A stretch of 64,000 nucleotides of DNA from assembly GCA_034003585.1 (NCBI GenBank), contig JAVEYH010000004.1, positions 16,488 through 80,487 on the forward strand. The letters are read 5' to 3'. The translations under genes and the position numbers were made by a program. This document shows, in pieces, positions 3,928 through 63,543 of the stretch. The notes under the pieces are model-generated. The model was not told where the DNA came from and ran no database searches. It saw only the letters and a list, made by a program, of their open reading frames with translations. How positions within the stretch are numbered: the stretch's first letter is position 1; every line of letters begins with the position of its first letter. This stretch comes from Kiritimatiellia bacterium (GTDB taxonomy: Bacteria > Verrucomicrobiota > Kiritimatiellia > RFP12 > UBA1067).

Positions 3928-4524
3928 ATGATGAGACGTCCGGTACAGAGTCGGATCCGGCTGGCCCTCGCCGGGTGCCTGGCGGCGACCGCGTTCGCGG
4001 CGTCCGCGCAGAACGGTGTCCGCGAAAACGGCGAGACGCCGGAGGCGCTCGCGCGCCGCGCCGCCGCCGCGGAGCGGGCCTGCCGGACCAATGAGGCGAT
4101 CTCCCTGTATGAGCGGCTGATCGGACGCGACGCCTCCCGCGAGCCGCTGGCCGTGGCGCGGCTGGCCGAACTCCACGCCGGCCGCGGGGACGCGCGCGAG
4201 GCCCTCGCCTGGGCCGCGCGCGCTGCGGCGCGCCACCCCGCTCCCCAGGCGTATCAGGCGGGCGTGCTGACGCGCCTCGGCCAACTCAGCGAGGCCGACC
4301 TGCTGCTGCGCGAGGCCCTCGCCCGCGAAACCGAACCCCGCCGCCGCGTGCCGCTGCTCTGGCAGCAGGCCGAGGTCCAGGAGCGTCTCGGCCAAACGGC
4401 GGCGGCCCTGTCCACCCTGCGCGCGGCGCGCGGCCTTGTCGAGGACCCCGCGACGCGGGGCGTGACCGACCGACGCCTCGCTGAGCTGGAACGCCGCGCC
4501 GCCGCGCCGGAGAAAAGCCCATGA
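3928..4524 (+). CDS. Secreted TPR-like helical-repeat protein
   Basis: ATG ATG at 3928/3931. Signal peptide MMRRPVQSRIRLALAGCLAATAFAASAQ. Ala/Leu/Arg-rich helical repeats. Its stop overlaps the start of the giant gene (ATGA at 4521-4524). Confidence 0.5.
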   Translation: MMRRPVQSRIRLALAGCLAATAFAASAQNGVRENGETPEALARRAAAAERACRTNEAISLYERLIGRDASREPLAVARLAELHAGRGDAREALAWAARAAARHPAPQAYQAGVLTRLGQLSEADLLLREALARETEPRRRVPLLWQQAEVQERLGQTAAALSTLRAARGLVEDPATRGVTDRRLAELERRAAAPEKSP

Positions 4525-10500: not shown

Positions 10501-11492
10501 GGGCCGGGGCGCTGATCGTGCTGGCCGTGGACGATGTGACCCTGGGCGCCCTGCCCGCCGGTTCCTACGCCTCGGTCACCGGGCAGGGCGATCTCCCGTT
10601 CAACGGATCCAAAAACATCACCTTCACCGGCCTGCCTTACGGCACCTACCAGGTGACGGTCCCGCTTCCCGCGCACCACATCGCGCGGGAGGACCCGTCC
10701 ACCCCCGGACAGGTGCAGAGCCTGACCAACACCTATTACGCCAATCCGCGCCAGGTGGTGATCTCCGGTTCCTGGCGACTGGCCGGGTTCGAACTGCTCT
10801 CCACGCTCGCCGTCACCTCGGCTGTCGTGCGCGACGCCTACACGCACGCCTTTTTGCCGGAAGTCCGCTTCGCCTTCACGGCGGCCTCCGGCGCGCTGAC
10901 CGGACAGGTGGCGGAGGGCAGCGTCCTGCTGACCGATTACGCCGACGCCTGGCTCAGCGGGGCGGACGGGCGCGCGCCCTCCAACATCGTGCTCGGCGCC
11001 TGCGACTGGGATCTGGCCCTCTCGCTGGCAGGGTACCAGACCTCAACCGTGGCGGCAGCGGTCAGCAACCTGCCGGCCGGCGCCTCCGCCGCGCTCGGCA
11101 CGCTGTATCTGATTCCCGCAGACACCAATGCCAACACCGTGGCGGATGCGTGGGAGGCGCTGCATTTTCCCGACGGGCTCGACAAGGAGGGCGACGCCGA
11201 TGAGGACGGCCTCAGCAATTACGGGGAGTATTTGTGCGGCACCCTCCCCCACGACGCCTCCAGCGTGCTCAGCATCCTCGATGCCGCTGCCGATCCCTCG
11301 GCCGCACACCTCACTTGGGCCGTGACCGCAGGCCGCACCTACACGGTCGAGGCCTTTGAAACGCTGGGAGGCACACCGGTGACGTACGGGCCATGGGAGG
11401 CCACTACCGGCCAGACCCTCATGCAGTGGAACGACCCGGACACGTCACTCTACGCGACCCGTTTCTACCGGGTCCGCCTGCAGGAGCCCTGA
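4521..11492 (+). CDS. Giant secreted multidomain protein (2323 aa): 2 pectate-lyase-fold beta-helix domains + active clan-CD (C11/C13/caspase-like) peptidase domain + degenerate second copy + PPC-like domain + Asp-rich TSP3-like C-terminal region
   Basis: Signal peptide MKTH…LAACLAAAPRAGA. Parallel beta-helix repeats appear twice (NNLCHNNPTGIDVQGG…DPLFVQPETGNFHLSS and NNTIRNTGHAVYLL…DPLFVSPAQDDFRLRS). Clan-CD motifs LLVYLVDHGG (His1267, nt 8319-8321) and VLLDFCYAGSF (Cys1312, nt 8454-8456). The second copy has LLLGQG (Gln1614, nt 9360-9362) and ILDFSGAGAF (Ser1655, nt 9483-9485). PPC-like DEDWVRVFL…YDIETYHF. C-terminal DKEGDADEDGLSNYGEY. Confidence 0.85.
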   Translation: MKTHVPYTLPQCAARIFGMLRLAACLAAAPRAGAVDYFVNDDLMPDDQFCTAPGNDGNDGLSAAAPLRSPAALLSRYTPVVGDTLYIDSGTYALTQDLELPSTGPGDPGSGPWLRVIGTGQTVLDRLNPGAESCCVRVRQDCTRIEGLICRKAGTGIRIHPETCRNAVLEQNTLTANTVAGVAIGADPGSEGHDTYTLRNNLCHNNPTGIDVQGGDGFHLAYATLENNTIVVYNGNGVVCGGRAGGMTLRNNIISVKGDGACLAITQAGAIGSSDFNNLHAYGEGRIAQQLEENTLHLFSTLSAWRAASGFDYASLNRDPLFVQPETGNFHLSSREGSWRKTGWAADPVTSPCLDAGDPSSPIGGEPAPNGNRVNLGAFGGTPEASLSEPGRTLTLLAPLGGESWSGDGVTVAWNGTGAGWSAEDTVRLEWAVAGTGSYTFWETLPDASALAPQGRYVWHPPANGTASYLLRVVCNADAAVSAMTAQAGTVVRQPRTYYVNDASVEGDLFCAGPGNDGNTGQSTNSPLPSLQKLLAQYTLQPGDTVYADTGLYNLDSNVVIDAQHSGSAELPVTLIGARGGTRLIRSANGSDRCCLDVKADHLRIGGFACESAEIGIRIQADAARHVRLTANRCRSNSVCGIQITPMAGGYGEMFQLLQNVVTDNGAGLYLQGDADVWGGRAQFLIENNTIRNTGHAVYLLNGNRVARRINVLKNNILVATGGESACIAALIKSVHYSDYNVLRAPNGSVGHLFYDPADPDPTPLTDLSLWRTATGGQDSHSLSADPLFVSPAQDDFRLRSDSPCADAGVISFWMAGLTDPDGQPRVAGVTVDIGAYELNVRVSLRLLLQGPFQGYGPTYLMSPALSESGVLPLTSPYADDPRRVTQIPQGVTDWVLLQFRRAPAAPSLLTTSAFLRQDGWVVGEDGSTNLVLNLPRTNTYHVVVKHRNHLAAMSAQAVGFSDQALGYDFTTGPGKYFGGESACAEVSGYAGTFFALRAGDVDGDGRVGAADEAVCLSMTEATASAYRRSDVTLDGSVTFQDDWTPVAAAAVSNSVSPVPNPGTALTGALWVKPSRATLAPGGSLALTCPAYAVSNTSAAAAVRAVTFNASNDTLVAWQFAQTNGNSTLTASGAAAALYTAGTVTGVTDVVTAWDSAERIGRAFLNVVGTQTVAAAGQALILAGRTSESDPLWPATEYLADTAYTTLRYRGFSKETIHYFSPEPLQDVDGNGEWDDIDGAATLAAAAHAFTNTVTGANRLLVYLVDHGGFSSGEGYFRLSNTNTLSATQLDAWLDALQDRDQTPVTVLLDFCYAGSFLPALTYTGTAERIVIAACGAAQPSYFVSGGLVSYSAAFFTGVMLGYDVLACHEMAQNAMGTYQTAMLDDDHDGADTEGDGDVAHVTVIGPTGVAAGDMPQIGEACGNQVLADGTSATLWIGSVTGPHPIAEAWCHIVPPGYDPDPDQPVTALPRCGLTYDTASGHYTVTYDGFTAAGTYPITFYVRDIEDNVSPPRTVYISQVGFDDRAILVAGCATNSADWPAVRYLTQLAYDTLRLRLFTPDRIRVLAPVAEWDLDGDGTNDVAGLAGTGTFHQAITEWAGTQPTDRLTFLLLGQGVSNALCLTAEERLSANALADRLHAYQSTNPIPVNLILDFSGAGAFIPALADPELAANAPEATRIVMASAHPGRAALFANNGTVSFSQYLLSGVIAGKTLGDAYTDARRAIRRISGNTRQRAQIDDNLNGEPSEKDTDGALADETYLGFAFVTGADAPVIGSVTPRLVCPGGPVTLWAAGIAGMHPISNVWCVITPPGQTGTGDLPSVSLTWNALSERYEAEWDGMTQPGLYTLTFLAADTAGQVSDPVQSEGILADAYEPDDRADQAALYDGDPQIRTLHATEDEDWVRVFLLQDWIYDIETYHFSEPFDTMLELYREMPAGSLERINQADEEGSDSGEFLGIDYPETGWYWVRVLPFREGTNTLGGYELSIDVPAADGAGALIVLAVDDVTLGALPAGSYASVTGQGDLPFNGSKNITFTGLPYGTYQVTVPLPAHHIAREDPSTPGQVQSLTNTYYANPRQVVISGSWRLAGFELLSTLAVTSAVVRDAYTHAFLPEVRFAFTAASGALTGQVAEGSVLLTDYADAWLSGADGRAPSNIVLGACDWDLALSLAGYQTSTVAAAVSNLPAGASAALGTLYLIPADTNANTVADAWEALHFPDGLDKEGDADEDGLSNYGEYLCGTLPHDASSVLSILDAAADPSAAHLTWAVTAGRTYTVEAFETLGGTPVTYGPWEATTGQTLMQWNDPDTSLYATRFYRVRLQEP

Positions 11493-31443: not shown

Positions 31444-31641
31444 CGGCTCGGCAAACCGTTGCCGCCCCTTCCCGCAGGGTGTCACAACTCCTCATTCCTC
31501 CTTCCTCGTTCCCGGTTTCCGTTCACGTACAGCAATTCTCATTATGGCCTTTTCCCCGGAATCGCTATCGGGATCGAAATCGATGAACCCCGCCTGGAAC
31601 ACCGGCTTCCCCAGATCCCGCGCGTTTGCTATGATGCGGCC

Positions 31642-38007: not shown

Positions 38008-39279
38008 TTACGGGTTCACATACTTGACCTTGTCGGCGTTGGTGCCCGCGCCGCGGATGTAGATCTCCACGCGACGGTTCTCGGGATTCCCGTTGACCAG
38101 GTCGGGCTGGACCTTGGGCCGGCTGTAGCCGTACCCCACGGCGCTCAGGCGCGACGCGGTCACGCCCTTGCCCGCCATATAGGACTGCACCGCCTGGGCC
38201 CGGCGCTCGGAGAGATCCTGATTGTACTTCTCGCTCGAACGCGTCCGGCGGTCCGCATGGCCCTCGATCACCGCCGTGGCCTGCGGGTTACGCTGCAACA
38301 CGCGCACGACCTGATCGATGTCCTTGAAGTATTCGGGCTTGATCACCGTGGTGTCATAATCGAACTGGATGTAGACCTCGAACAGCATCAGGTCATCGGA
38401 GGGATCCAACGGGTTGGTCTTGTCCTCGATCACCTCGTGCCCGTCCGCCACGCCGCCCTTGTCGGTGTCGCGGTCCAGCGGGCTGGTCTTGTGGGTGAAC
38501 ACCTCGGCCCCGTCCTTGAGCCCGTCGAAATCGGTGTCCGGATTGAGCGGGTTGGTTTTGTAGACCTTGACCTCATCGCCGTCCGTCAGCCCGTCGCCGT
38601 CGGTGTCTTTGTTGAAGGGGTCGGTCCCGAGCTTCGCCTCCTCTTCGTCGGTCAGCCCGTCGCCGTCCGAATCCTTGGGCAGGGCCGCAACCGCCGCCGC
38701 GCCCTCGCTGACACGGCTGTCGCGGCTACCGCCGAAACGGTAAACCACCCCGGCATCCACCGTGTACTGCATCTCATGCCGCTTATCGACCGACATCAGT
38801 GCCCGGCTGTCAGCCCGGAGAGAGAAGTTGTCGGTCAGATGATACATGGCACCCAGGCCAATCCGCGGCCCCGTCAGAGTAGAGCGGTCCCCCTCTTCAA
38901 ACACATTGCGGTCCGCCATATACACGGCCCAACCTGCCGAAAGGAACGGGTCGAATCGGCTGTACCGGTCGAAATGATACAGCGCATCAACCCCCAACCC
39001 GTACATGCGCTGCTTTTTCTGCGTCCAGCGCTCGTTGTTGGTCATGTTGGGCGCGAAAGACGCCTCCGTCTCCACCGACCAGTGGTCGGTGAGATCGTAA
39101 CCGAGACGCAGGTTGAGATTCAACCCCTCGTCAATCGCCTGATTCCCCTCAGGGAAAATCATTCCGATCCCGGGATTGACATACCAGCGGGGCGCATCGA
39201 CCAGCTCATCGGCCTTCACCTGCGAACACAAGATCCCAGCGGCCGCAACCGCTGAAAGTATCAGTCTTGATGTGCTCAT
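38008..39279 (-). CDS. OmpA-family outer-membrane protein with N-terminal beta-barrel, thrombospondin-type-3 Ca-binding repeats and C-terminal OmpA peptidoglycan-binding domain (copy A)
   Basis: AAGGAGGAATCGG SD. Signal peptide MSTSRLILSAVAAAGILCSQVKA. TSP3 repeats DSDGDGLTDEEEAKLGTDPFNKDTDGDGLTDGDEV…NPDTDFDGLKDGAEV. OmpA domain …EGHADRRTRSSEKYNQDLSERRAQAV…. Confidence 0.85.
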   Translation of the reverse strand: MSTSRLILSAVAAAGILCSQVKADELVDAPRWYVNPGIGMIFPEGNQAIDEGLNLNLRLGYDLTDHWSVETEASFAPNMTNNERWTQKKQRMYGLGVDALYHFDRYSRFDPFLSAGWAVYMADRNVFEEGDRSTLTGPRIGLGAMYHLTDNFSLRADSRALMSVDKRHEMQYTVDAGVVYRFGGSRDSRVSEGAAAVAALPKDSDGDGLTDEEEAKLGTDPFNKDTDGDGLTDGDEVKVYKTNPLNPDTDFDGLKDGAEVFTHKTSPLDRDTDKGGVADGHEVIEDKTNPLDPSDDLMLFEVYIQFDYDTTVIKPEYFKDIDQVVRVLQRNPQATAVIEGHADRRTRSSEKYNQDLSERRAQAVQSYMAGKGVTASRLSAVGYGYSRPKVQPDLVNGNPENRRVEIYIRGAGTNADKVKYVNP

Positions 39280-39429: not shown

Positions 39430-40990
39430 GGGCGCTGTTATATAACAAAAAGGGCCGCAGAAGAAACGGCGGTTTCTCTGCGGCCTTCCGATCGCGACGT
39501 TCCCGCGTGCGGCGGAAGCGTTACGGGGTCACATACTTGACCTTGTCCGCGTTGGTGCCCGCGCCGCGGATGTAGATCTCCACACGGCGGTTCTCGGGGT
39601 TCCCGTTGACCAGATCGGGCTGGACCTTGGGACGGCTGTAGCCGTACCCCACCGCGCTCAGGCGCGACGGGGTCACGCCCTTGCCCGCCATGTAGGACTG
39701 CACCGCCTGGGCCCGGCGCTCGGAGAGATCCTGATTGTACTTCTCGCTCGAACGCGTCCGGCGGTCCGCATGGCCCTCGATCACCGCCGTGGCCTGCGGG
39801 TTGCGCTGCAGCACGCGCACGACCTGGTCGATGTCCTTGAAGTATTCGGGCTTGACCACCGTGGTGTCATAATCGAACTGGATGTAGACCTCGAACAGCA
39901 TCAGGTCGTCGGAGGGGTCCAGCGGGTTGGTCTTGTCCTCGATCACCTCGTGCCCGTCCGCCACGCCGCCCTTGTCGGTGTCGCGGTCCAGCGGGTTGGT
40001 CTTGTAGGTGAACACCTCGGCCCCGTCCTTGAGCCCGTCGAAATCGGTGTCCGGATTGAGCGGGTTGGTCTTGTAGACGTTGACCTCATCGCCATCCGTC
40101 AACCCGTCGCCGTCGGTGTCCTTGTTGAAGGGGTCGGTCCCCCGTTTCGCCTCCTCGTCGTCGGTCAGCCCGTCGCCGTCCGAGTCCTTGGGCAGGGCCG
40201 CCACCGCCGCGGCGCTCGCCGCCGCCGCACCCGCCGCGCCGCCGCCGAAGCGGTAAGCGACGCCGGCATCCGCCGTGTAGATGAATTCGCAGGTCTGATC
40301 CAGCGCCATGAAGGCCCGCGTATCCGCACGCAGCGACCAGCGGTCATTCAGGTGATACATGAGGCCCGCGCCCAGGCGCGGGCCGACCACGCTGTACTCG
40401 CTGCCTTCGCAGAACACATTGTCATTCGCGCGATAATAACCGAAACCGGCGGCCAGATAGGGGTCGAGCCGGTTATACCGGTCGAAGTGGTACAGCCCGT
40501 CCACAAACAGGCCGCGCACACTCTGTCCGCCGAGCCCGTCCTCCGAACCGGAGGAACCCACGCCGGGCCACCAGCATCCGTCTCTGCATCCTCCGTCCCA
40601 ACCGCCTCCCGCGCCGCCGTCATCCCGTCCGTCCCGCCCGTTGCTGGTGATGTTGGGCGCCCAGGAGACCCCGCCTTCAACCGACCAGTGCTCGGACAGA
40701 TCATACCCCAACCGCAACAGCAGGTTCAGACCCTCATCCACCGGCTGGTTGCCCTCGAAGAACATCATGCCGACACCCGGGCTCACATACCAGCGGGGCG
40801 CATCGGTCCACTCCTCGGCCTTCCCCTGTGAACACGCGATCCCAACGGCCGCAACCGTTGAAAGCATCCGTCTTGCTTTGCTCATCCGATTCCTCCTTCA
40901 TGTTCTAAGGTCATGGCTACTTTACCGGAATCGGAAGCGCGACGCAACAAGAACCGGATTACATGACATTTTTTTAAGATTGCGCCCATG
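39385..40990. repeat. Tandem duplication unit B (paralogous copy; contains a decayed lptF/G 5' fragment at 39367..39429 on the minus strand)
   Basis: Minus-strand fragment ATGAAGATTCTGGAGCGATGTGTG…TAA encodes MKILERCVVQAVVDAAWAQS*, against MKILERYVLQAFLGAFVLAW in the intact gene. The terminator hairpin copy is at 39447..39490. Confidence 0.7.
39521..40885 (-). CDS. OmpA-family outer-membrane protein with TSP3 repeats (copy B; carries an extra Gly/Asp-rich insertion)
   Basis: Signal peptide MSKARRMLSTVAAVGIACSQGKA. Insertion NITSNGRDGRDDGGAGGGWDGGCRDGCWWPGVGSSGSEDGLGG is absent from copy A. The TSP3 and OmpA domains are near-identical to copy A. Confidence 0.85.
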   Translation of the reverse strand: MSKARRMLSTVAAVGIACSQGKAEEWTDAPRWYVSPGVGMMFFEGNQPVDEGLNLLLRLGYDLSEHWSVEGGVSWAPNITSNGRDGRDDGGAGGGWDGGCRDGCWWPGVGSSGSEDGLGGQSVRGLFVDGLYHFDRYNRLDPYLAAGFGYYRANDNVFCEGSEYSVVGPRLGAGLMYHLNDRWSLRADTRAFMALDQTCEFIYTADAGVAYRFGGGAAGAAAASAAAVAALPKDSDGDGLTDDEEAKRGTDPFNKDTDGDGLTDGDEVNVYKTNPLNPDTDFDGLKDGAEVFTYKTNPLDRDTDKGGVADGHEVIEDKTNPLDPSDDLMLFEVYIQFDYDTTVVKPEYFKDIDQVVRVLQRNPQATAVIEGHADRRTRSSEKYNQDLSERRAQAVQSYMAGKGVTPSRLSAVGYGYSRPKVQPDLVNGNPENRRVEIYIRGAGTNADKVKYVTP

Positions 40991-46301: not shown

Positions 46302-46377
46302 GGGGGTATAGCTCAGTTGGTAGAGCGCTTGAATGGCATTCAAGAGGTCGGGGGTTCGACTCCCCCTACCTCCACCA
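46302..46377 (+). tRNA. tRNA-Ala (anticodon GGC), CCA encoded
   Basis: Cloverleaf folded by hand. Acceptor GGGGGTA/TACCTCC with G3:U70. Anticodon loop ATGGCAT. T-arm GGGGGTTCGACTCCCCC. 3' ACCA. Confidence 0.9.
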
Positions 46378-51496: not shown

Positions 51497-51514
51497 GGCG
51501 GGCGGGGACGCCCG
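51497..51514. repeat. REP-like GC hairpin GCGGGCG-GGGA-CGCCCGC (second copy at 63403..63420)
   Basis: An identical 29-nt block GCGGGCGGGGACGCCCGCGCTCCCGACTC occurs in two intergenic regions. Confidence 0.4.
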
Positions 51515-51597
51515 CGCTCCCGACTCGCCCGTCCACCTTTTCACCGGAAACGCGTGACCTTCGCCCCTCCGCGGTCACGAACCGGTTCCGCGCCTCC

Positions 51598-54042: not shown

Positions 54043-55449
54043 TCATGAAACCGGGACTTCCGCGGAACCCAAGTCCAACGGCGCGTTGGTTTGCCATGCG
54101 CCGCGGGTGAAATCAGGAATCTCGGCGGCTGCCGAGCGGTGAGACACGGAATACTCGCTCAGCGGCGCGATGCAGCTCCACGAGGCGGCGTCATAGACAT
54201 CCTGGTCGAGGGGCCGGCCGTTACGCAGACAATCGATCAGCCGCCAGTCCATGAGAAAATCCATGCCGCCGTGTCCGCCCACCTGTTTGGCGAGCGCACC
54301 CACTTTTTTGACGAGTTCAGGGGTATACCGCTCCTCCAGTTTCTGCATCTCCTCCGGTTTCAGCCAATGATGCCCGCCCAGCGCGATGCGCGGCGGCAAC
54401 GGCCATTTCATGGCAACCGCCTTGGTGCCCTGCACCAGGTGCGTGCGGGAGTAGGGACGGGGCGTGGTGACATCGTGCTGCGACAGGATGGTCCTTCCTT
54501 TGACCGTATGCACCATTGTGTTATTCATGTTGCCCCGGTATGACTTGCCGGCAAACGGCTTGTAAAACGCATCCGTGGCAGCCAGCTCATCAATCATGCG
54601 CGCCATCACGAAATCGGCGGACTGCATGGACACCAGATAGTCCATCCGGTCGCCGCGATTGATGTTCATGATCTGGCAGATCGGCCCCATGCCATGGGTC
54701 GGATAGAGGTTCCCGTTGCGCGCCTCTTCCTTAAGCCGCCACATCTCCGCATAGTACGTCTTGTCCAGATAGAGCGGCCGATTGAAATGCAGATAACTGC
54801 CTTCCCCGTGAATGATCTCGCCAAACAGCCCCTGCCGCGCCATATTCAGCGTCAGCAGTTCGAAGAAGTCGTAGCAACAGTTTTCCAGCATCATGCAGTG
54901 CTTGCGGGTGCGTTCCGAGACCTCAACCAACTGCCAGCACTCCTCCACCGTTTTTCCCGCGGGCACCTCCACGGCCACGTGCTTGCCGCACTTCATGGCA
55001 TAGACCGCCATCGGCGTGTGCAGGGCCCAGGGCGTACAGAAATAAACCAGGTCGATGTCGGGCGACTCGCAAACCGCCTTCCATCGCTCGCTGCTGCCCG
55101 CGTAGCCTTTGGCCGGAGGGAATCCTTTTTTGGAGATGATCTGCTGGCAAGCGTCGACCCGGTCTTGATACAGGTCACTGAACGCCGCGAATTTCACGCC
55201 CTCCAGAAAGGTGAAGCGCTCCACCGCGCCGACGCCGCGCCCGCCGAATCCGCCGCCGCGCGCGCCCACGCCGATGAAGCCGATCCGGATCTGGCCGATC
55301 TTCGGCGCGGCGTAGCCGCACATGTTGAAGGGTTGCGTTTGCGGCGGTTGCGGCGGTTGCCTGCGCATGCCGGCCCGCAGTTCGCCAGCCGCAAACATCC
55401 CCGTGCCGCACATCGCCGTTTTCAAAAAGGACCGCCGTTTCTGCTTCAT
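54043..55449 (-). CDS. TAT-secreted Gfo/Idh/MocA-family oxidoreductase
   Basis: GGGAGGAAAGT SD. Twin-arginine signal MKQKRRSFLKTAMCGTGMFAAG. Rossmann fold IRIGFIGVGARGG. Confidence 0.85.
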   Translation of the reverse strand: MKQKRRSFLKTAMCGTGMFAAGELRAGMRRQPPQPPQTQPFNMCGYAAPKIGQIRIGFIGVGARGGGFGGRGVGAVERFTFLEGVKFAAFSDLYQDRVDACQQIISKKGFPPAKGYAGSSERWKAVCESPDIDLVYFCTPWALHTPMAVYAMKCGKHVAVEVPAGKTVEECWQLVEVSERTRKHCMMLENCCYDFFELLTLNMARQGLFGEIIHGEGSYLHFNRPLYLDKTYYAEMWRLKEEARNGNLYPTHGMGPICQIMNINRGDRMDYLVSMQSADFVMARMIDELAATDAFYKPFAGKSYRGNMNNTMVHTVKGRTILSQHDVTTPRPYSRTHLVQGTKAVAMKWPLPPRIALGGHHWLKPEEMQKLEERYTPELVKKVGALAKQVGGHGGMDFLMDWRLIDCLRNGRPLDQDVYDAASWSCIAPLSEYSVSHRSAAAEIPDFTRGAWQTNAPLDLGSAEVPVS

Positions 55450-55585
55450 ACTTTCCTCCCTTGTTCACATCATATCATTTCCCCGTTTCCTATAAAAAGC
55501 CGGATTCACGCAGAACAACTATCAGAAAAACAAACTTGCGCGTTTCGCCAAGACGCCGTTTATGCGCTATAGACCCGGCGCGTAA

Positions 55586-55688
55586 GGAATAAGGGCAGGA
55601 AACGCCGGGGTCGGCATCGGAACCGGTATCGGCAGCCAAAGGGGTTTTCGACCCCGATTCCGATACCGGCCCCGAACCGTTCCAAGAC
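55586..55688 (+). repeat. Hairpin-forming intergenic repeat, copy R1 (family shared with 59714..59812 and 63313..63396)
   Basis: GGGGTCGGCATCGGAACCGGTATCGG-CAGCCAAAGGGGTTTTCGA-CCCCGATTCCGATACCGGCCCCG…TTCCAAGAC. The arms are an imperfect inverted repeat. Confidence 0.55.
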
Positions 55689-55819
55689 CCGTTGGTGACC
55701 CGCGCGATGACCTTTGCCATCCTGCGCACATGAACCTGACAGGCGGCAGCGACGTTTGATATTCTGGACCAACGGAATCCTTCCGGCGGTCCGGGCGGTT
55801 TCCTCGAAAGGAGCACATC

Positions 55820-56935
55820 ATGAGAAAGCGGTTGGTTTCGTTTCTGGCGATGATGACGGGGTTGGCGGCGTGGGCCGGAGCGCAACCGCTCGGTCCGGAG
55901 CGGATGACGGAGGTGAGGGCTTCGGTCCGCAAAGGACTCGGCTGGCTCGCGGCGCAGCAGAAACCCGGCGGATTCTGGTCGGACGACAAGATGCCGGCCC
56001 TGACCGCGCTGCCGCTATGGGCGATCGCCGGCGCCGGCGAGAGCGCGTTCCGGGAGGAGGCCGACCGCGCGGTGGCCTACCTGTTGTCCAAACAGCAGCC
56101 GGACGGCGGCATTTACACCCCCATGCCCGGGCGGAAAGGCGGCGGACTCGGCAATTACAACACCTCCATCTGCGTGGCGGCGCTGCACGCCACCGGGCGG
56201 CGCGAGGTCATGCCCGCGGTCCTGAAGGCCCGTACCTACATCGCGTCCTCGCAGCACACGGGCGACGACTGGCATGCGGGCGGGTTCGGGTACGACAAAG
56301 ACGCGGGGCGGCGCTATTCCGATCTGAACAATACCCATTTCTCCCTCGACGCCATGCGGCGCACCCAGAGCGCCGAGGAGTTCCGTCCCGCGGGCGTGAA
56401 GCGCGCGGACATCAACTGGGACGCGGCCCTCCGCTATGCCCTTCAGTTGCAGAACACCGAGGGCGAGACCGCTGGCGGGTTCGCCTACAACACGCAGGAT
56501 CCGAAAGGCGGCGTTTCCACCAACGCCGCGGGCCGCGTGATGCTGCGCGCGTACGGCAGCATGTCGTACGCGGGGCTGCTCTCGCTGATCCACGCGCAAC
56601 TCGACAAACAGGATCCGCGCGTGCGTTCGGTCGTGGCGTACGGCTCGCGCTTCTGGACCCTGGAGGAGAATCCCGGCCAGGGTCAACAGGGGCTGTATTT
56701 CTACTACAACGTCGTCTCGCGCGCGCTCAGCGCCGCAGGTCTCGACGCGCTGCCGAAACACGCCGCGCCGGGCGAGATCCGCTGGCGCGAGGATCTCGTC
56801 CGCAAGCTGATGGCCCTGCAGCGGCCCGACGGCTCCTGGGTCAATGAGAACAACCGCTGGTGGGAGAACGACCCGGTGCTGGCCACCGCCTACTCGTTGC
56901 TGGCTTTGGAATTCGCCTCGGGCCTGACACGGTGA
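55820..56935 (+). CDS. Secreted prenyltransferase/squalene-oxidase-repeat (terpenoid-cyclase-like alpha/alpha toroid) protein
   Basis: AAAGGAGCA SD. Signal peptide MRKRLVSFLAMMTGLAAWAGA. Repeated QxxDGGW/F motifs (QQKPGGFW, QQPDGGIY, QRPDGSW). Confidence 0.65.
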   Translation: MRKRLVSFLAMMTGLAAWAGAQPLGPERMTEVRASVRKGLGWLAAQQKPGGFWSDDKMPALTALPLWAIAGAGESAFREEADRAVAYLLSKQQPDGGIYTPMPGRKGGGLGNYNTSICVAALHATGRREVMPAVLKARTYIASSQHTGDDWHAGGFGYDKDAGRRYSDLNNTHFSLDAMRRTQSAEEFRPAGVKRADINWDAALRYALQLQNTEGETAGGFAYNTQDPKGGVSTNAAGRVMLRAYGSMSYAGLLSLIHAQLDKQDPRVRSVVAYGSRFWTLEENPGQGQQGLYFYYNVVSRALSAAGLDALPKHAAPGEIRWREDLVRKLMALQRPDGSWVNENNRWWENDPVLATAYSLLALEFASGLTR

Positions 56936-56959: not shown

Positions 56960-59143
56960 TCACGCCTTGAGGCGCGCGGTCAGCGTGGTCCGGCGCTCGC
57001 GGACCTGGTTGGCCTTGATCGCGATGGCGACGGCGCGGGAGGAGCCGACCACCAGCACCAGCCGTTTGCCGCGCGTGATGGCGGTGTAGAGCAGGTTGCG
57101 CTGCAGCAGCTTGTAATGTTGCGTGTGCATCAGAACGATCACCGCCGGGTACTCGCTGCCCTGCGACTTATGGATCGAGCAGGCGTAGGCGAGGACCAGC
57201 TCGTCGAGTTCGCTTTGCGCATAGGCCACGGGCCGGCCGTCGAACAGCACGGTCAGCGAACGGTCCTCCGCGTCCACCTCGCGGATGAAGCCGATGTCGC
57301 CGTTGAACACTTCTTTGTCGTAATTGTTGCGGAGCTGCATCACGCGGTCGCCGCGGCGGAAGCCCGAGGCCCCGCGCATCAAAGTGGGCCCGTCGGGATT
57401 GAGCGCCGCCTGGATCACCTCGTTCAGGTTTTCGGTGCCGAGCAGATTCCTGCGCATGGGGGTCAGGACCTGCACTTCGGTCAGCGGATCGAACCCGAAC
57501 TTGCGGGGGATCCGTTGCGTCATGAGCTCGAGCGTGCGCGCGATGATCCGGTCCGGTTCGCTGGTTTCGACAAAATAGAAGTCGCTCTCGCCGCCGCGGG
57601 TCTCGAACGGTTCGCCGCGGTTGACACGGTGCGCGTTGCGCACGATCAGTCCGGAGGTGTCCTGACGGAAGATCGTGTCCAGCCGGCAGAAGGGGATCAT
57701 GCCGGAAGCGATCAGATCGCGCAGGACATTGCCGGGACCGACGCTCGGCAACTGGTCGGTATCGCCCACCAGAATCAGGGTGACGGCATGCGGCAGGGCC
57801 TGCAAAAACTGATCCATCAGGCGGATGTCGATCATCGAGGTCTCGTCCAGAATGAAGCAGTCGCCCGTCATGGGGTTCTCGTCGTTGAACTCGAACCGGC
57901 CCTGACTCGGGTTGAACTTCATCAGGCGGTGGAGGGTCTGGGCCTCGCGGCCGGTGGCCTCGGACATACGTTTGGCGGCGCGGCCGGTCGGCGCGGCCAG
58001 GCGCACATCGAGTTTGCGCGCCCCGAAGATCTCGGTGAGGGCGCGGATGATCGTGGTCTTGCCGACGCCCGGGCCGCCGGTGATGATCGAGACCTTCGCG
58101 TTCAGGGCGTTGCACAGGGCCTCGCGCTGGAGCGGCGCGAGGCGGATCCCCATTTTGTTTTCCGCCCACGCCAGCGCCTTGCCGGTATCGATCGGCCTGA
58201 AGGGCCGCGGCGCGTCGAGAAGCAGACGCAGTTTGGCGGCCACCCGGGTTTCGGCCCGGCAGAGATCCCGCAGATAGACGCGGTTCTCCTCTTTCACCAG
58301 TGAGCCCTTCTCGTATTCCTGCGCCAGGGCCCCGGCGAGGATCTCCACCGAGATGTCCAGCATCTCCTGGGCGTGCAGCAGCAGGTCGGCGTCCACCGTG
58401 AAACAGTGACCGCCGTCTTCGGCCTCCGTGCGCAGGGTATGGATCAGGCCCGCGCACGCGCGCAGCTCGGAATCGTGCGGGATGCCCACGCTGAGCGCGA
58501 TGGCGTCCGCGCTTTTGAACCCGATGCCCCAGACATCCTCGCAGAGCCGGTAGGGGTTGCGCTTGACGACGGCGATGGAATCGGCGCCGTACTGCCGGTA
58601 GATGCGGGAGGCCTTGGCCGTGCCGATGCCGTGGGACTGCAGGAAGATCATGATTTCGCGCACGCCGCGTTGCTCGGTCCACGATTCCTTGATGAGCTTG
58701 CGCCGGCCTTCGCCGATGCCTTCCACCTCACGCAGGCGGCCGGATTCGCGGTCAATGACATCCAGCGTCTGCTCGCCAAACCGGTCCACGATGCGTTTGG
58801 CGAAGGTGGGGCCGATCCCCTTGATCATGCCGCTCGCCAGATAGCGGCGCAACCCCTCGACCGAGGTGGGCGTGATGCAGGTGATGACGCGCGCCTGAAA
58901 CTGTTGGCCGTGGGATTTGTGGCGGACCCACACGCCTTCGGCGTGCAGTTCCTCTCCCTCCCAGACCGCGGCACAGGTCCCGACCACGGTCACGAGTTCG
59001 TCGCGGCCCCGCAGACGCGACTGCGGCCGGATATGACAGACCGTATACCCGTTCTCGTCATTGCGGTAGACGATGGACTCCACGGTGCCGGTCACGCTCT
59101 CTTCCGCTGCGGATTCTTGAGGGTTCTGTGTCGGGACAGTCAT
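56960..59143 (-). CDS. recD2: ATP-dependent RecD-like DNA helicase (RecD2 type)
   Basis: N-terminal domain + helix-hairpin-helix. Walker A GGPGVGKTT. SF1 motifs (LILVGDTDQLPSVGPG, …SIHKSQGSEYPAVIV). Length ~727 aa, as in RecD2. Confidence 0.85.
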   Translation of the reverse strand: MTVPTQNPQESAAEESVTGTVESIVYRNDENGYTVCHIRPQSRLRGRDELVTVVGTCAAVWEGEELHAEGVWVRHKSHGQQFQARVITCITPTSVEGLRRYLASGMIKGIGPTFAKRIVDRFGEQTLDVIDRESGRLREVEGIGEGRRKLIKESWTEQRGVREIMIFLQSHGIGTAKASRIYRQYGADSIAVVKRNPYRLCEDVWGIGFKSADAIALSVGIPHDSELRACAGLIHTLRTEAEDGGHCFTVDADLLLHAQEMLDISVEILAGALAQEYEKGSLVKEENRVYLRDLCRAETRVAAKLRLLLDAPRPFRPIDTGKALAWAENKMGIRLAPLQREALCNALNAKVSIITGGPGVGKTTIIRALTEIFGARKLDVRLAAPTGRAAKRMSEATGREAQTLHRLMKFNPSQGRFEFNDENPMTGDCFILDETSMIDIRLMDQFLQALPHAVTLILVGDTDQLPSVGPGNVLRDLIASGMIPFCRLDTIFRQDTSGLIVRNAHRVNRGEPFETRGGESDFYFVETSEPDRIIARTLELMTQRIPRKFGFDPLTEVQVLTPMRRNLLGTENLNEVIQAALNPDGPTLMRGASGFRRGDRVMQLRNNYDKEVFNGDIGFIREVDAEDRSLTVLFDGRPVAYAQSELDELVLAYACSIHKSQGSEYPAVIVLMHTQHYKLLQRNLLYTAITRGKRLVLVVGSSRAVAIAIKANQVRERRTTLTARLKA

Positions 59144-59161: not shown

Positions 59162-59512
59162 TCAGGCGTACGGGAGGATCACGGCGGCGAGGACCAGCGG
59201 CGCGGCGCCGGGGTTCTCCACACCGTGCTCGCCGCCCTTGCCGGTGAGCACGGCGTCGCCCGCGGCGACCGGGATGGCACGGCCGTTTTCCAGAATCAGC
59301 CCCTGTCCGGAGAGCACGAGGTAAATCTCATCCTCCGCCTCGTGCCGATGGGTGCCGATCGAACCGCCCGGCGGGATCACCAGGCGCGCGCAGAGGCGCG
59401 CCTTGGCGCCGAACGCCTCCGGCCGGAACCAGTGCTCGACCTGCACGGTGCCGGTGCCGCCGCGCATGTTCTCGCGCCGTTCCACCTCCCGCTCTTGATC
59501 GCGTGTGATCAT
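59162..59512 (-). CDS. Cupin-domain protein
   Basis: ATG 59512 with GGAAAAGGGGG SD. His-containing cupin motifs (GGSIGTHRHEAEDEIYLVLSG…GGEHGVEN). Confidence 0.65.
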   Translation of the reverse strand: MITRDQEREVERRENMRGGTGTVQVEHWFRPEAFGAKARLCARLVIPPGGSIGTHRHEAEDEIYLVLSGQGLILENGRAIPVAAGDAVLTGKGGEHGVENPGAAPLVLAAVILPYA

Positions 59513-59643
59513 CCTTGCCCCCTTTTCCGCGCGTGTCCGCACTTCGCGGCACTGCGGGGCCTGACCCCGCCTGCCGTGATCCGGAATATACCATAACCCC
59601 GCAAACGGTCAACCGGCCCATTCCGCATCCGCGGCGAAGGGGT

Positions 59644-59926
59644 GCATCCCCGTTTCCCTGACTCCCGTCAACGAGTCGCGCGGGGATGCAGCCATTCACA
59701 TAATGCGGCGATTGGCCTCTCGGGTTCGGCGTCGGGTTCGGCATCGGGACCGAAAACCCTTTGGCTGATGAACCCGATTCCGAACCCGACCCCGACGCCG
59801 ACGCCGAGGGTTCCGTCATCAGCAGGATTGCCGGCATGGATGGCCGCGAGACCGCACCCGTTCACAGCGAAGCGGCACACGTTCCCGTACACGGGGAACC
59901 GGGCGGAGTCAGGGAAACGGGGATGC
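59644..59926. mobile_element. MITE-like non-autonomous element (~283 bp): perfect 22-bp terminal inverted repeats flanking a copy (R2, reverse orientation) of the hairpin repeat
   Basis: The TIR GCATCCCCGTTTCCCTGACTCC at 59644..59665 is exactly reverse-complemented at 59905..59926. The internal core 59714..59812 is homologous to R1 and R3. No transposase gene is present. Confidence 0.4.
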
Positions 59927-60069
59927 GCCTGAATCTGACTTGCAGGATCACGATTGTTTGATATATAAACGAACGGTCTCACAAAATTCTAAAAAAAGCC
60001 GGAAGGGGAAATCTGCATCTCCGGTTGGATGGGGGGAACAAGAAAGTGGCATCTGAGAAACTGAGGCGT

Positions 60070-63000
60070 ATGTCTCTACTCTGCGCGAGACGTAAAGAAA
60101 TTGTGTTCGCAACCGTAGTCGCTGCGGTGTGGTCGAATTTCGCGGCGACGATTGAGGTCAAGCCTGGCGACGGGACGATCGCCGCGGCGGTGGAGAAACT
60201 GCGCGTGCTCCGCGCCGGGCAACCTGATGAGCCGGTTACGGTCCGACTCGCCGGCGGCGTCTATGAACTCGCGGGCACGATCCGGCTCACGGCGAAGGAC
60301 GCGACCGCTCCGGTCCTTTTTACGGCGGCGGACGGTGCGGAGGTCCTCGTGTCCGGCGGACGGTGTTTGAAGGGCGGGCGTGTCGATGGCGGCGTCGTCA
60401 AATTTCCGGTGCCGGAATGGAAAAACGGCTCGTGGAAGATCGAGCAGCTCTATATCAACGGACGGCGCGCGCTCCGTCCCTCTGTGCCAGAGAATCAGTA
60501 CTTCTATCCTGAGGGGCGTATCGACGATCCGGAGGACGCCGAGAAGGCGAAGGCCGACGCTGCGAAGGGCAATCCGCGCAAAGTCAAAGCCGCGTACGAC
60601 CGCTTCATCGCCGCGCCGGGACAGATCCCGGAGGAATGGAAAGGTGTCGAGGTGATCGTGCCGCACGGCTGGGTGATCACTCGCGCGCGGATCAAAAGCT
60701 ACAATCCGGCCACGCGCGAGACCGTCATCGACGGCGGACGCCCCGGCTATATGCACGACATCACGACCGACCGGCACTATCGCCTCGAGAATGTGAAGGC
60801 GGCGTTCGGCAAGCCCGGCGAGTGGTACGCCGACACCGGGTCCGGCGAGATTTTCTACACGCCGCTCAAGACGGAGAAGGCGGATTCGCTCGAAGTCGTC
60901 GCGCCGCGGCTCCACACACTGTTCGTGGTCGAGGGAGACCCCGCCTCGAACCGTAAGGCCGGCAACATCACCTTCGAGAAGATCACCTTTGCCCACACCG
61001 CGTTCGTGCTGCCTGACGGCGGCTGCGCCGATCACCAGGCGAGTCTTGACCACGCCGGGGCAATCGTCGCGCGCTTCGCGGACAATGTCGTTGTTCAGGA
61101 CTGCGACATCCGTCGTACCGGCGGCTGGGGCGTGAAGTTCGAAGGCGGCTGTACAGGATGCGCCGTGCGCGACTCGCGGCTTTTCGACCTCGGCGCGGGC
61201 GGTGTCGAGATCGGTTCGCCGAAACGCGGCATCCGGAAAAACAACCGCGCGGAATACACGGAGCGCTGCGCGGTGGAGCGGTGCTTCATTGAGTGCGGCG
61301 GACGCGTCCATCCGGCGGCGATCGGCGTCGCCGTGACGCTCGCGGGGCACAACCTCGTCTCGCACAACACGATCCGCGACTTTTATTACAGCGCGGTCAG
61401 CGTCGGGCACGACTGGGGCGACGGCAATCCCGCCGCGGCCGGCAATATCGTCGAGTGGAACCACATCTACGACATCGGCCAGCGTGTCCTCTCCGACCTC
61501 GCCGCGGTTTACACGCTCGGCGAGCAGCCCGGCACCGAGATCCGGAACAACCTGATCCACGACGTCTGGACGGCCCGTTATGGCGCGCAGGGCGTCTATC
61601 TCGACCAGGGATCGAAATACATCACCGTCTCGAACAACGTCATCGTCCGTGCGCTGGAGGCGTCGTTCTCCAGCGCGGCCGGCGCGTGCGGACACAACCT
61701 TTTCGCGAACAACATCTTCATGTTCCCGCGCCGCTACGCCGCGTGGCTCTATTCCGAGAAGGATTACGGGAATTGGATGCCGAAACACAGGCACAGCCCC
61801 GGCCACCAGCTCTTCATCGAGCGCAACATCTTCCTCGGCGACGAGAATCTCAAGGGCATGTTCCCCGCGGAAGGGCGCCAGCCGCTTTCCGACCGCATCC
61901 ACTTCAAGGGCAACACGTGGTGGAACATTGGCTGGCCGGAGGATTTCAAGTTCAGTTCGTGGACGAAGGGGACCAACGTCCTTGACGTCGTCACCGAGGA
62001 CGATCCCCCGGAAGCGTTCTACCAGTCGCCGAAACAGTGGCGCGACCGTCTGCGGCTGAAGGTTCCGTCAGAGGACGTGGCGAACTTCCTTGCGAAGACA
62101 GACGGCGATGTCGTGGCCGATCCGCTTCTCGCGATGCCGTATGGCAGCGAGGCGTTCCTCTTCCCCGCGCCGGACTCGCCGGCCGTCAAAAACGGGTTCG
62201 TTCCGTTCGACCTTTCGCGCGAGGTCGGTGCCGGGAAGCCGCACGCGAAGGGCAAGCCGCGCATGACGCGGCCGGAGAACGCGACACAGACCTTCCCTCG
62301 CGCGCCCCTCAGTCCGTCCGCCCAGAGAACGCTCGCGAAAGCGGAGTCTGCGGCAAAAGACACGCTCCGGCTGATCGTCTTCAAACAACGGTTCACCGGC
62401 GGCGGTGCCGGATTCGCGCTTCTCTTCCGCACGCCAAACGGGAAGAACTATCTCTTCGACGCCGGCAACGGAGGCAACTGCGTTGTGCCGTTCAGTTGCG
62501 GCCGCGACGAGATCGACCATTATCTATACGAGCACGACATCCGCAAGCTGGACGGCGTGATCGTCTCGCATTCGCACGGGGACCATTTCGGCGGCCTCAT
62601 CTGGCTCGCTGACAAATACAAGGCGGACAAGTTCTGGGATTCGGGCTACACCTTCCCGGGATCGGACGGCGCGGGCGAGGATGGCTGGGCGAAGATTCTT
62701 CGCGAGAAGATGCTCCGCTTCCATCCGGACATGGCTTGTATCAAGGTCCGCCGCGGGGACAAGATGGACTGGGACGCCGATTTGGACGTAACCGTCATCA
62801 ATCCGCCGCCGGGCGCCGGCATCCCCGTTCTGGATAACGACAAGCGCCCAAAGAACGACACCCCGGGCCACCACCTGCTCAACGCGAACGCGATCGGGAT
62901 TCGCGTCAAGTTCAAGGACGTCGTGTTCCAGGTGAACGGTGATATCCAGGAGGACTACGCCCACGAGCACCTCTTCCCGTTTATCAGGGAGGCGTACGCC

Positions 63001-63318
63001 GAGAACGACCGCAAGGTGGACGTGCTGGTGGCCCTCAGCCACGGCATCCACGCGACGCGCGAGGAGGCGGAGTTGTCCCGTCCGAAAATCGCGCTCGGCA
63101 GCATCTATTTCGACGGCGCGCCCAAGAACTGGTGCCGGCAGTGGGCGCGGGAGCGCGGGGTTCTCAACCGCGAATTCGAGGCCGTCGGCGCGAAATGCTT
63201 CGATTCGGGTGTGTGGGGAACGGTTGCCGTGACGAGCGATGGCAAAACCTGCTACGCCGAGACCGAGTTCAAGAAACCCCGCAAGGGCGTTTCCGAATAC
63301 AAACAACACGGAAAATAA
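60070..63318 (+). CDS. Right-handed beta-helix protein fused to a C-terminal metallo-beta-lactamase-fold hydrolase domain
   Basis: Start ATG 60070 (MSLLCARRKEIVFATVVAAVWSNFAATIEV). GTG 60025 is an alternative start. PbH1 repeats (VQDCDIRRTGGWGVKFEGGCTGCAVRDS…, SHNTIRDFYYSAVSVGHDWG). C-terminal MBL motif VIVSHSHGDHFGGLIWL. Confidence 0.7.
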   Translation: MSLLCARRKEIVFATVVAAVWSNFAATIEVKPGDGTIAAAVEKLRVLRAGQPDEPVTVRLAGGVYELAGTIRLTAKDATAPVLFTAADGAEVLVSGGRCLKGGRVDGGVVKFPVPEWKNGSWKIEQLYINGRRALRPSVPENQYFYPEGRIDDPEDAEKAKADAAKGNPRKVKAAYDRFIAAPGQIPEEWKGVEVIVPHGWVITRARIKSYNPATRETVIDGGRPGYMHDITTDRHYRLENVKAAFGKPGEWYADTGSGEIFYTPLKTEKADSLEVVAPRLHTLFVVEGDPASNRKAGNITFEKITFAHTAFVLPDGGCADHQASLDHAGAIVARFADNVVVQDCDIRRTGGWGVKFEGGCTGCAVRDSRLFDLGAGGVEIGSPKRGIRKNNRAEYTERCAVERCFIECGGRVHPAAIGVAVTLAGHNLVSHNTIRDFYYSAVSVGHDWGDGNPAAAGNIVEWNHIYDIGQRVLSDLAAVYTLGEQPGTEIRNNLIHDVWTARYGAQGVYLDQGSKYITVSNNVIVRALEASFSSAAGACGHNLFANNIFMFPRRYAAWLYSEKDYGNWMPKHRHSPGHQLFIERNIFLGDENLKGMFPAEGRQPLSDRIHFKGNTWWNIGWPEDFKFSSWTKGTNVLDVVTEDDPPEAFYQSPKQWRDRLRLKVPSEDVANFLAKTDGDVVADPLLAMPYGSEAFLFPAPDSPAVKNGFVPFDLSREVGAGKPHAKGKPRMTRPENATQTFPRAPLSPSAQRTLAKAESAAKDTLRLIVFKQRFTGGGAGFALLFRTPNGKNYLFDAGNGGNCVVPFSCGRDEIDHYLYEHDIRKLDGVIVSHSHGDHFGGLIWLADKYKADKFWDSGYTFPGSDGAGEDGWAKILREKMLRFHPDMACIKVRRGDKMDWDADLDVTVINPPPGAGIPVLDNDKRPKNDTPGHHLLNANAIGIRVKFKDVVFQVNGDIQEDYAHEHLFPFIREAYAENDRKVDVLVALSHGIHATREEAELSRPKIALGSIYFDGAPKNWCRQWARERGVLNREFEAVGAKCFDSGVWGTVAVTSDGKTCYAETEFKKPRKGVSEYKQHGK

Positions 63319-63396
63319 GCATTGGCTTCGGGGGCGGCATCGGAATCGGGTCCGTCAGCCAAGGGGGGGGGGTCGGCCCCGATGCTTTTCCAAGAC
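63313..63396 (+). repeat. Hairpin-forming intergenic repeat, copy R3 (shortened), containing an 11-G homopolymer
   Basis: …AATAAGcattggcttcGGGGGCGGCATCGGAATCGGgtccgtCAGCCAAGGGGGGGGGGGTCGGCCCCGATgcTTTTCCAAGAC. Followed by REP hairpin 63403..63420. Confidence 0.5.
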
Positions 63397-63402
63397 GTTG
63401 TT

Positions 63403-63420
63403 GCGGGCGGGGACGCCCGC
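63403..63420. repeat. REP-like GC hairpin GCGGGCG-GGGA-CGCCCGC (copy 2)
   Basis: Identical to 51497..51514. Confidence 0.4.
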
Positions 63421-63543
63421 GCTCCCGACTCCGCGTACTTCAGCGTTACGCGTTGGACGTTGCGCGTTGAACGTTTCGATCCTTCTTCCCCGTTCCCTGT
63501 CCCGCGACTGCGGCACCTCAACGGTAACGCGCACCCGCGCGGC

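Follow-up and report, generated by a model that had tools for sequence, protein, structure and literature searches.

The 289-bp sequence at 59641..59929 (minus strand) of the analysed window, a 64-kb stretch of DNA from a Kiritimatiellia bacterium, is the only member bounded by inverted repeats of a family of dispersed repeats, and may well be, with chances that we regard as about even, the copy best preserved in a lineage-specific family of non-coding, MITE-like repeats of this bacterium and its close relatives. Perfect 22-bp terminal inverted repeats had been claimed in a first-pass annotation and were confirmed: the 22-nt sequence GCATCCCCGTTTCCCTGACTCC at 59644-59665 has its exact reverse complement at 59905-59926, and no further match to it was found in the 64-kb window with up to three mismatches allowed (0.00 expected from shuffles). 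The repeat stretches to 25 nt with one mismatch (59641-59665 / 59905-59929; 24/25 complementary, 96%; chance expectation 0) and is the sole inverted repeat of such quality within 400 nt across the window, the others being at most 82% complementary. The left arm, GGTGCATCCCCGTTTCCCTGACTCC, lies at 59641..59665 and the right arm, GGAGTCAGGGAAACGGGGATGCGCC, at 59905..59929 (both given on the plus strand), with 239 nt enclosed between them; the right arm forms the 5' terminus of the unit. The family orientation is that of the minus strand, pointing to a cupin gene, and the nhmmer family profile matches the element at 59637-59934 (E 1.5e-78). The GC content of the element is 65.4%, compared to 66.1% for the window, 67% for the left flank and 44% for the right flank.

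Read 5' to 3' on the minus strand, the proposed unit would consist of the 25-nt terminus, a subterminal hairpin, a conserved spacer of ~70 nt, an 80-90-nt TCGGNN palindrome and a short 3' module, to which this copy alone would add a near-perfect inverted copy of the 5' terminus. The small subterminal hairpin, GTTCCCCGTGTACGGGAAC on the minus strand, is at 59881..59899 and is kept in the copies found on two other metagenome contigs, L141 and L171. The conserved 5' module, running from the inverted repeat to the palindrome, covers 59809..59904, and the 3' module, from the palindrome to the left inverted repeat, 59666..59718 (both on the minus strand), the latter with a weak likeness to L171:10157-10215 and to window positions 31503-31560. 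This 3'-module similarity is, for the present copy (copy 2), a judgement by eye; otherwise the family alignment and nhmmer were used. A hairpin at the 3' end (59644-59690) is unrelated in sequence to the subterminal hairpin at 59881-59899.

The interior of the element is dominated by a long imperfect palindrome of ~90 nt at 59719..59808 (minus strand), with the loop CAGCCAAAGGG and with arms of 29-34 nt that are 79-86% complementary. Arrays of TCGGNN hexamers make up these arms, with the mirror image NNCCGA across a conserved loop, CAGCCAA(A/G)GGG. The pattern TCGGNNTCGGNNTCGG had 17 matches against 1.8 expected, 15 of them inside the three copies of the palindrome known from the first-pass annotation. 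That annotation had taken the palindrome to be homologous to two other sites and inverted relative to them, and both points were borne out (55603-55690 and 63319-63396; nhmmer E 1e-13 to 1e-14). Its description of a core common to all three copies was too broad: the tail TTCCAAGAC is present in copies 1 and 3 only and absent from copy 2, which also has GGGTTCGGAATCGG in place of the core letters GGCATCGGAA. Three base pairs stay paired through two-sided changes among copy 1, copy 2 and the L171 copy; the palindrome keeps its pairing despite sequence divergence. When folding was checked, the 311-nt region of the element folded far beyond shuffles on both strands (z -6.6 and -5.7) and copy 1 also gave a positive result (z -3.2), whereas copy 3 did not exceed shuffles (z = -0.25).

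The family profile detected four sites in the window and two on other contigs, and none besides. The repeat family claimed at the outset is thus larger than described, by one more fragment in the window, the fourth member there, and by two copies at unrelated loci elsewhere; one intact and three partial copies are seen in 64 kb, and the two further ones are on contigs not assigned to a species. Copy 1, at 55598..55692 (plus strand; nhmmer E 1.3e-13), consists of the palindrome only and sits between the divergent genes for a GH109-like protein (54043-55449, minus strand) and a prenyltransferase-like protein (55820-56935, plus strand), bracketed by predicted promoters at 55496..55469(-) and 55736..55763(+). 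Copy 3, at 63319..63398 (plus strand; nhmmer E 1.8e-14), is a degenerate palindrome-only copy that has lost most of its right arm; it begins directly past the stop codon of the gene for a GH141-like / beta-helix / metallo-beta-lactamase protein (60070-63318, plus strand) and is followed by TTTT. The placement originally given, with two copies in divergent and one in convergent intergenic regions, is correct. The fourth, partial member, at 31503..31596 (minus strand; nhmmer E 1.4e-14), comprises the right palindrome arm and the 3' module, with 80% identity over 76 nt to L171:10132-10207. It lies between a gene for an AraC-type regulator and one for a secreted protein, the start of which was placed at 31642 and not at the ORF start, 31459.

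The other contigs reaching copy 1 agree with the window as far as they go (7/7, five of them covering the whole copy), and the 31503-31596 member is identical in contig L173; every contig that reaches these two sites matches the window, so that no presence/absence polymorphism was found at either. As a side observation, the loop of copy 3 contains a G10 homopolymer (63363-63372) that is possibly prone to slippage; it is identical in L011, the sole other contig covering it.

The copies on L141 and L171 were found by a protein-database search with a spurious minus-strand ORF crossing the element; the same search also recovered the same locus from other samples (P0001). L141 is a 585-bp ENA contig and L171 a 26-kb JGI contig, in which a sugar-phosphate-isomerase-like gene and a GH31 gene flank the unit. 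Both are unrelated intergenic loci with flanking genes that differ from those of the window. Common to the window, L141 and L171 are the 25-nt terminal sequence, the subterminal hairpin, the spacer of ~70 nt and the left hexamer array; a 155-nt window match spanning the 5' module is 83% identical to L171, and segments of L141 are 87-89% identical to L171. As L141 and L171 may be from other species, this 83-89% similarity could also reflect a conserved functional element. The L171 copy has a complete palindrome, followed by T7 and then by the 3' module, and its right arm and 3' module recur at window 31503-31596 on the minus strand. No second inverted repeat was recognisable in L141 or L171, the 3' ends of which have, by eye, only a GAAAC-containing core in common with the inverted repeat.

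These copies also bear on the limits of the element, as both outer edges of the inverted repeat act as true limits of it. On the right side this is confirmed by the homology to L141 and L171, which begins at 59929-59931, no more than 2 nt from the outer edge of the repeat. On the left side it is confirmed by two contigs from other samples, L007 and L010, in which all similarity to the window is lost from 59641 on, where the 25-nt repeat begins. This boundary evidence suggests mobility. Thirteen contigs from other samples carry an identical cupin gene or the element, and 10 of these 13, from nine samples, agree with the window over the parts of the element that they cover; among the contigs, L143 is an exact substring that includes the whole element and both flanks, and L009 ends before the element, at 59634. 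L007 and L010 match the 128 nt at 59513-59640, the former identically and the latter with one single-base deletion, and L007 is identical over 1125 nt more, through the cupin gene and into the start of RecD2. Beyond 59641, local alignments of the L007 variant sequence to the element or to its 3' module were no better than those of shuffles, and the variant sequence of both contigs ends in another dispersed repeat. The right flank of the window is absent from L007 and L010, so these contigs do not represent a clean empty site; they show a rearrangement breakpoint at the end of the element, not an insertion as such.

Two side observations concern these contigs. The element breaks short-read assemblies at its locus: the contig ends of L001-L006, L008 and L011 map to 59770-59906, and around the loop of the small hairpin three contigs stop at 59885 and one begins at 59893, which suggests either sequence common to other genomic copies or a variable hairpin loop. 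In L007, positions 57-137, absent from the window, hold a 26-codon ORF, MKKPFGLQRLMVGVYPRSFAADAEWAG, with AGGAGG before it; it lies upstream of the cupin promoter and runs over the breakpoint into the shared sequence.

Prokaryotic MITEs are typically shorter than 500 bp, with inverted repeats of about 4-30 bp, and the typical ones are AT-rich and lie in AT-rich DNA (PMC10969869). The element, at 289 bp and with a 25-nt inverted repeat, is within these limits of size and repeat length, and it is non-coding and carries no transposase; L141 and L171 lack the repeat pair. Flanking direct repeats, which young copies at least should have, were not found, and with 65.4% GC the element departs from the AT-richness that is typical, although not obligatory, of MITEs. 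It resembles QMITE2 of Coxiella burnetii and prokaryotic MITEs in being below 500 bp, non-coding and intergenic, in its very stable predicted stem-loop, in the variable completeness of its copies and in the length of its terminal repeats, 23-29 nt in the former (PMC10969869); it differs from them by the missing direct repeats, its GC-rich composition and the single two-ended copy seen. With the BrickBuilt MITE of Porphyromonas gingivalis it shares a species-restricted, strictly intergenic distribution, a small size, a short-repeat interior between leader and tail modules and small inverted-repeat ends (PMC4596501). BrickBuilt, present in 19 copies per genome and with demonstrated promoter activity, sets a precedent for MITEs that contain an array of short repeats, although that array is a direct 23-nt minisatellite, whereas the element has 6-nt units in two inverted arrays that form one long palindrome (PMC4596501).

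The first-pass annotation had left the choice between a mobile non-autonomous element and a structured RNA or REP family. The family, its boundaries and the MITE-range size and repeat length speak for the mobile element; no target-site duplication, no transposase in the window and no second inverted repeat elsewhere in the family were found. The target-site duplication that had been proposed as a check is absent, as the flanks (GCGGCGAAGG | element | TGAATCTGAC) have no bases in common at the junctions. The search for a cognate transposase was likewise negative in the 64-kb window: transposase, integrase, RAYT and Y1 domains were not found in its ~37 ORFs. We infer transposition, its enzyme and any effect on transcription as follows. 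A transposase with its gene at another site would have recognised the terminal repeats and mobilised the unit in trans, and the insertion, here between two divergent promoters, would have been into intergenic DNA where it was tolerated. With time, the older copies would have decayed to the one-ended units of L141 and L171 and to the palindrome-only or 3'-only remnants at 55.6, 63.3 and 31.5 kb. Judged by analogy, such a set of intact, one-ended and remnant copies would have the look of decaying mobile repeats. The internal palindrome may form a hairpin or cruciform, and in at least the L171 copy, with its T7 run, it may work like a terminator hairpin.

REP and BIME sequences are imperfect palindromes of ~20-40 nt with very high copy number and an associated RAYT gene. 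It is possible, though we consider it rather unlikely, that the present family is a palindromic one of REP or SPRITE type that does not depend on inverted repeats, with the hexamer palindrome as its primary unit and the 25-nt repeat as a local secondary inverted duplication. The hairpin would then serve as a terminator, insulator or recombination site, and would spread through a Y1/HUH enzyme acting on single-stranded hairpins, through recombination or through gene conversion. Such an origin would agree with the lack of both inverted-repeat arms in three of the four window copies and of a second inverted repeat in L141 and L171, with the absence of a target-site duplication, as HUH-type elements would give, with the compensatory changes that hold the pairing of the palindrome and with the presence of a second REP-like family in the same genome (see below). 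As in dispersed hairpin repeats, there are palindrome-only copies, and T-runs follow two of the hairpins, T7 in L171 and TTTT in copy 3, which sits right after a stop codon; no T-run follows copies 1 and 2, however, so that it is missing in two of four hairpins. The empty result of a terminator scan is explained by hairpin loops that exceed the limit of the scan. The palindrome, with 80-90 nt, far exceeds classical REPs, and no RAYT or TnpA gene and no Y1 transposase domain are present in the window. In addition, full units have a conserved 5' module of ~120 nt, unlike REPs, and this module and the terminal sequence are conserved along with the palindrome at three independent loci; therefore, the unit is larger than the hairpin. 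Finally, both outer edges of the repeat coincide with independent boundaries, which a random local duplication would not predict.

Correia elements of Neisseria and ERIC/IRU elements of enterobacteria are intergenic, ~100-150 bp long, have inverted ends or a long imperfect palindrome and can alter the transcription of neighbouring genes; the TA target of Correia elements is duplicated and their copies number in the hundreds. The element has no known sequence similarity to them, and it is larger and has a hexamer-built core. In palindrome-associated elements derived from IS200/IS605, similar hairpins lie near each of the two ends, and both inverted repeats and a duplication are lacking; the element has no duplication and has a 5' subterminal hairpin, but its 3'-end hairpin is unrelated and inverted ends are present. 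Integron attC sites are imperfect palindromes bounded by RYYYAAC and GTTRRRY core sites, and the post-hairpin sequences GTTGGTG and GTTGTTG do not, by inspection, fit GTTRRRY; no integrase was found in the window.

The element is located in a 557-nt divergent region between the cupin gene (59162-59512, minus strand) and the GH141-like gene. A sigma-70-type promoter of the cupin gene and the RecD2 gene behind it (56960-59143, minus strand) was predicted at 59585..59612 (minus strand), between the element and the cupin gene, as a TTGACC-16-TATATT arrangement with TG (10/12, by consensus match only), and a candidate promoter of the GH141-like gene lies just beyond the other end of the element. 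The position of copies 1 and 2 between predicted divergent promoters, along with the strong hexamer periodicity, might fit a DNA-level regulatory module in which the TCGG arrays and the paired 25-nt sites bind a regulator, for example by looping between the two inverted sites. We regard this as very improbable. The 6-nt period is off the helical repeat of DNA, the genes on either side have no functional relation, neither copy 3 nor the 31.5-kb fragment lies in a promoter region, the sites have no associated regulator, and the L007 and L010 variants, without the element, keep the predicted cupin promoter.

The fold of the family admits a further reading as a structured RNA, a sRNA of ~200-290 nt or a transcription-attenuating leader that would be made from the minus strand toward the downstream gene. 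The 5' terminus would pair with the left hexamer arm as an anti-terminator or, here, with the distal inverted repeat, freeing or blocking the big hairpin. We consider this unlikely. The three 5' modules have a consensus fold that joins the terminus to the left hexamer arm (35 pairs, pairing in 95% of cells, two compensatory changes), and controls slid by 1-3 columns pair just 24-48%; the covariation is not significant, though, as 62 of 500 shuffles equal it with n=3 sequences. In L171 the big hairpin, which would compete with this pairing, has T7 (U7) behind it, and the two together have the geometry of an anti-terminator and terminator; no T-run follows the hairpin in copies 1 and 2, and the fold of the L171 unit exceeds shuffles by a small margin only (z -1.9). 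According to our reading of the alignment, two C-to-T changes in the subterminal hairpin of L171 would preserve G.U pairs, on the minus strand only. Blocks are 83-89% conserved at unrelated loci, and all three full units (3/3) point toward a downstream gene, which is automatic within a divergent intergenic region. These downstream genes are unrelated (cupin-RecD2, GH31 and a secreted protein), and the fragmentary copies at 31.5 kb and 63.3 kb do not resemble functional RNA genes. The best predicted promoters in the window and L171 lie between the unit and its downstream gene, with none upstream of the unit or inside it.

The comparison with Rfam points in the same direction. At gathering score, no family matched the element and a tRNA was the only match in the window; at E<=10, the hairpins gave weak microRNA-precursor-like matches of 20-30 bits, against thresholds of 48-197. 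A match of the core to a known riboswitch or sRNA, named in the first-pass annotation as a refuting result, was thus not found. Also unlikely, and by our estimate marginally more so than the structured RNA, is an RNA switch carried on a dispersed repeat, as an undescribed class of Kiritimatiellia attenuator or sRNA, or else a transposon moving via hairpin DNA intermediates without target duplication.

The MITE-like reading requires the element to be non-coding, and this was supported by its substitutions. Between the window and L171, 26 substitutions in 155 nt fall 8/10/8 on the codon positions whichever of the six frames is taken, and stop codons occur in several frames of the element; given this even spread and the stops, the element is non-coding. 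The ORFs called by gene finders over the element on other contigs (P0001-P0003) vary like non-coding DNA. A small protein translated from the hexamers, as Gly-X and Pro-X / Asp-X peptides, was considered separately and rejected, as there is no codon-position bias, stops are present and no start codon or RBS was found.

Searches outside the window were consistent with a narrow distribution. In six related genomes of the Kiritimatiellia group (L012-L016, L031), the RecD2-linked loci of 7-22 kb contained no site detected by the family profile and no TCGGNN arrays either. The exact hairpin-core pattern had no matches in GTDB species genomes, where the source species is not represented, and a slightly looser hairpin pattern gave 49 matches in metagenome contigs, which likewise lack the source organism, all in unrelated coding sequence of other bacteria, and missed the known JGI contig. 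Among viral contigs the inverted repeat had no matches and the hexamer pattern met only simple coding dipeptide repeats, and BLAST against plasmid and phage records returned nothing meaningful.

The RecD2 protein has its best matches, 80-84% identical, in Kiritimatiellia / 'Verrucomicrobia' MAGs, which assigns the window to Kiritimatiellia. In the window, RecD2 is separated from a radical SAM gene (63544 to beyond the window, minus strand) by ~4.4 kb (59162-63543) that contain the cupin gene, the element, the GH141-like/MBL gene, copy 3 and a REP-like repeat. In the related genome L013 (9552-10001) the radical-SAM gene directly abuts RecD2, and in L012 a different stretch of ~4.5 kb lies between them; the interval is a variable locus. 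The block of cupin gene, element and GH141-like gene is lineage-specific, since RecD2 and the radical-SAM gene abut in L013.

Small non-autonomous repeats have hardly been described so far in Kiritimatiellota, and a full-text literature search pairing the phylum name with 'inverted repeat' returned nothing. The family is an incremental, lineage-specific addition to the well-known class of small intergenic inverted-repeat and palindromic elements and reveals no new mechanism. It is usable as a marker of strain-level rearrangement in this population, and the expression of carbohydrate-active and DNA-repair genes could be changed by the element, which lies between their divergent promoters.

A second dispersed repeat, GCGGGCGGGGACGCCCGCGCTCCCGACTC, was noticed in the same genome. 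It forms a 7-bp GC stem with a GGGA loop and is found in intergenic DNA after gene ends, at window 51498-51527 and 63403-63431 (plus strand), and elsewhere at L013:5012-5040, 7374-7422 and 7544-7566, in the first 28 nt of L007 and L010 and in the final 21 nt of L011. A related Kiritimatiellia species has it too, and it forms the end of short-read contigs from several samples; by its appearance it is a family of REP-like or terminator-like type, with wider conservation than the hexamer family. Phage genes were not found among the ~37 window ORFs scanned. The remaining features observed in the window were two tandem OmpA-family genes with bacterial TSP3 repeats (38008-39279 and 39521-40885, minus strand), a gene for a 2323-aa beta-helix protein (4521-11492, plus strand) and a tRNA-Ala(GGC) at 46302-46377 (plus strand).
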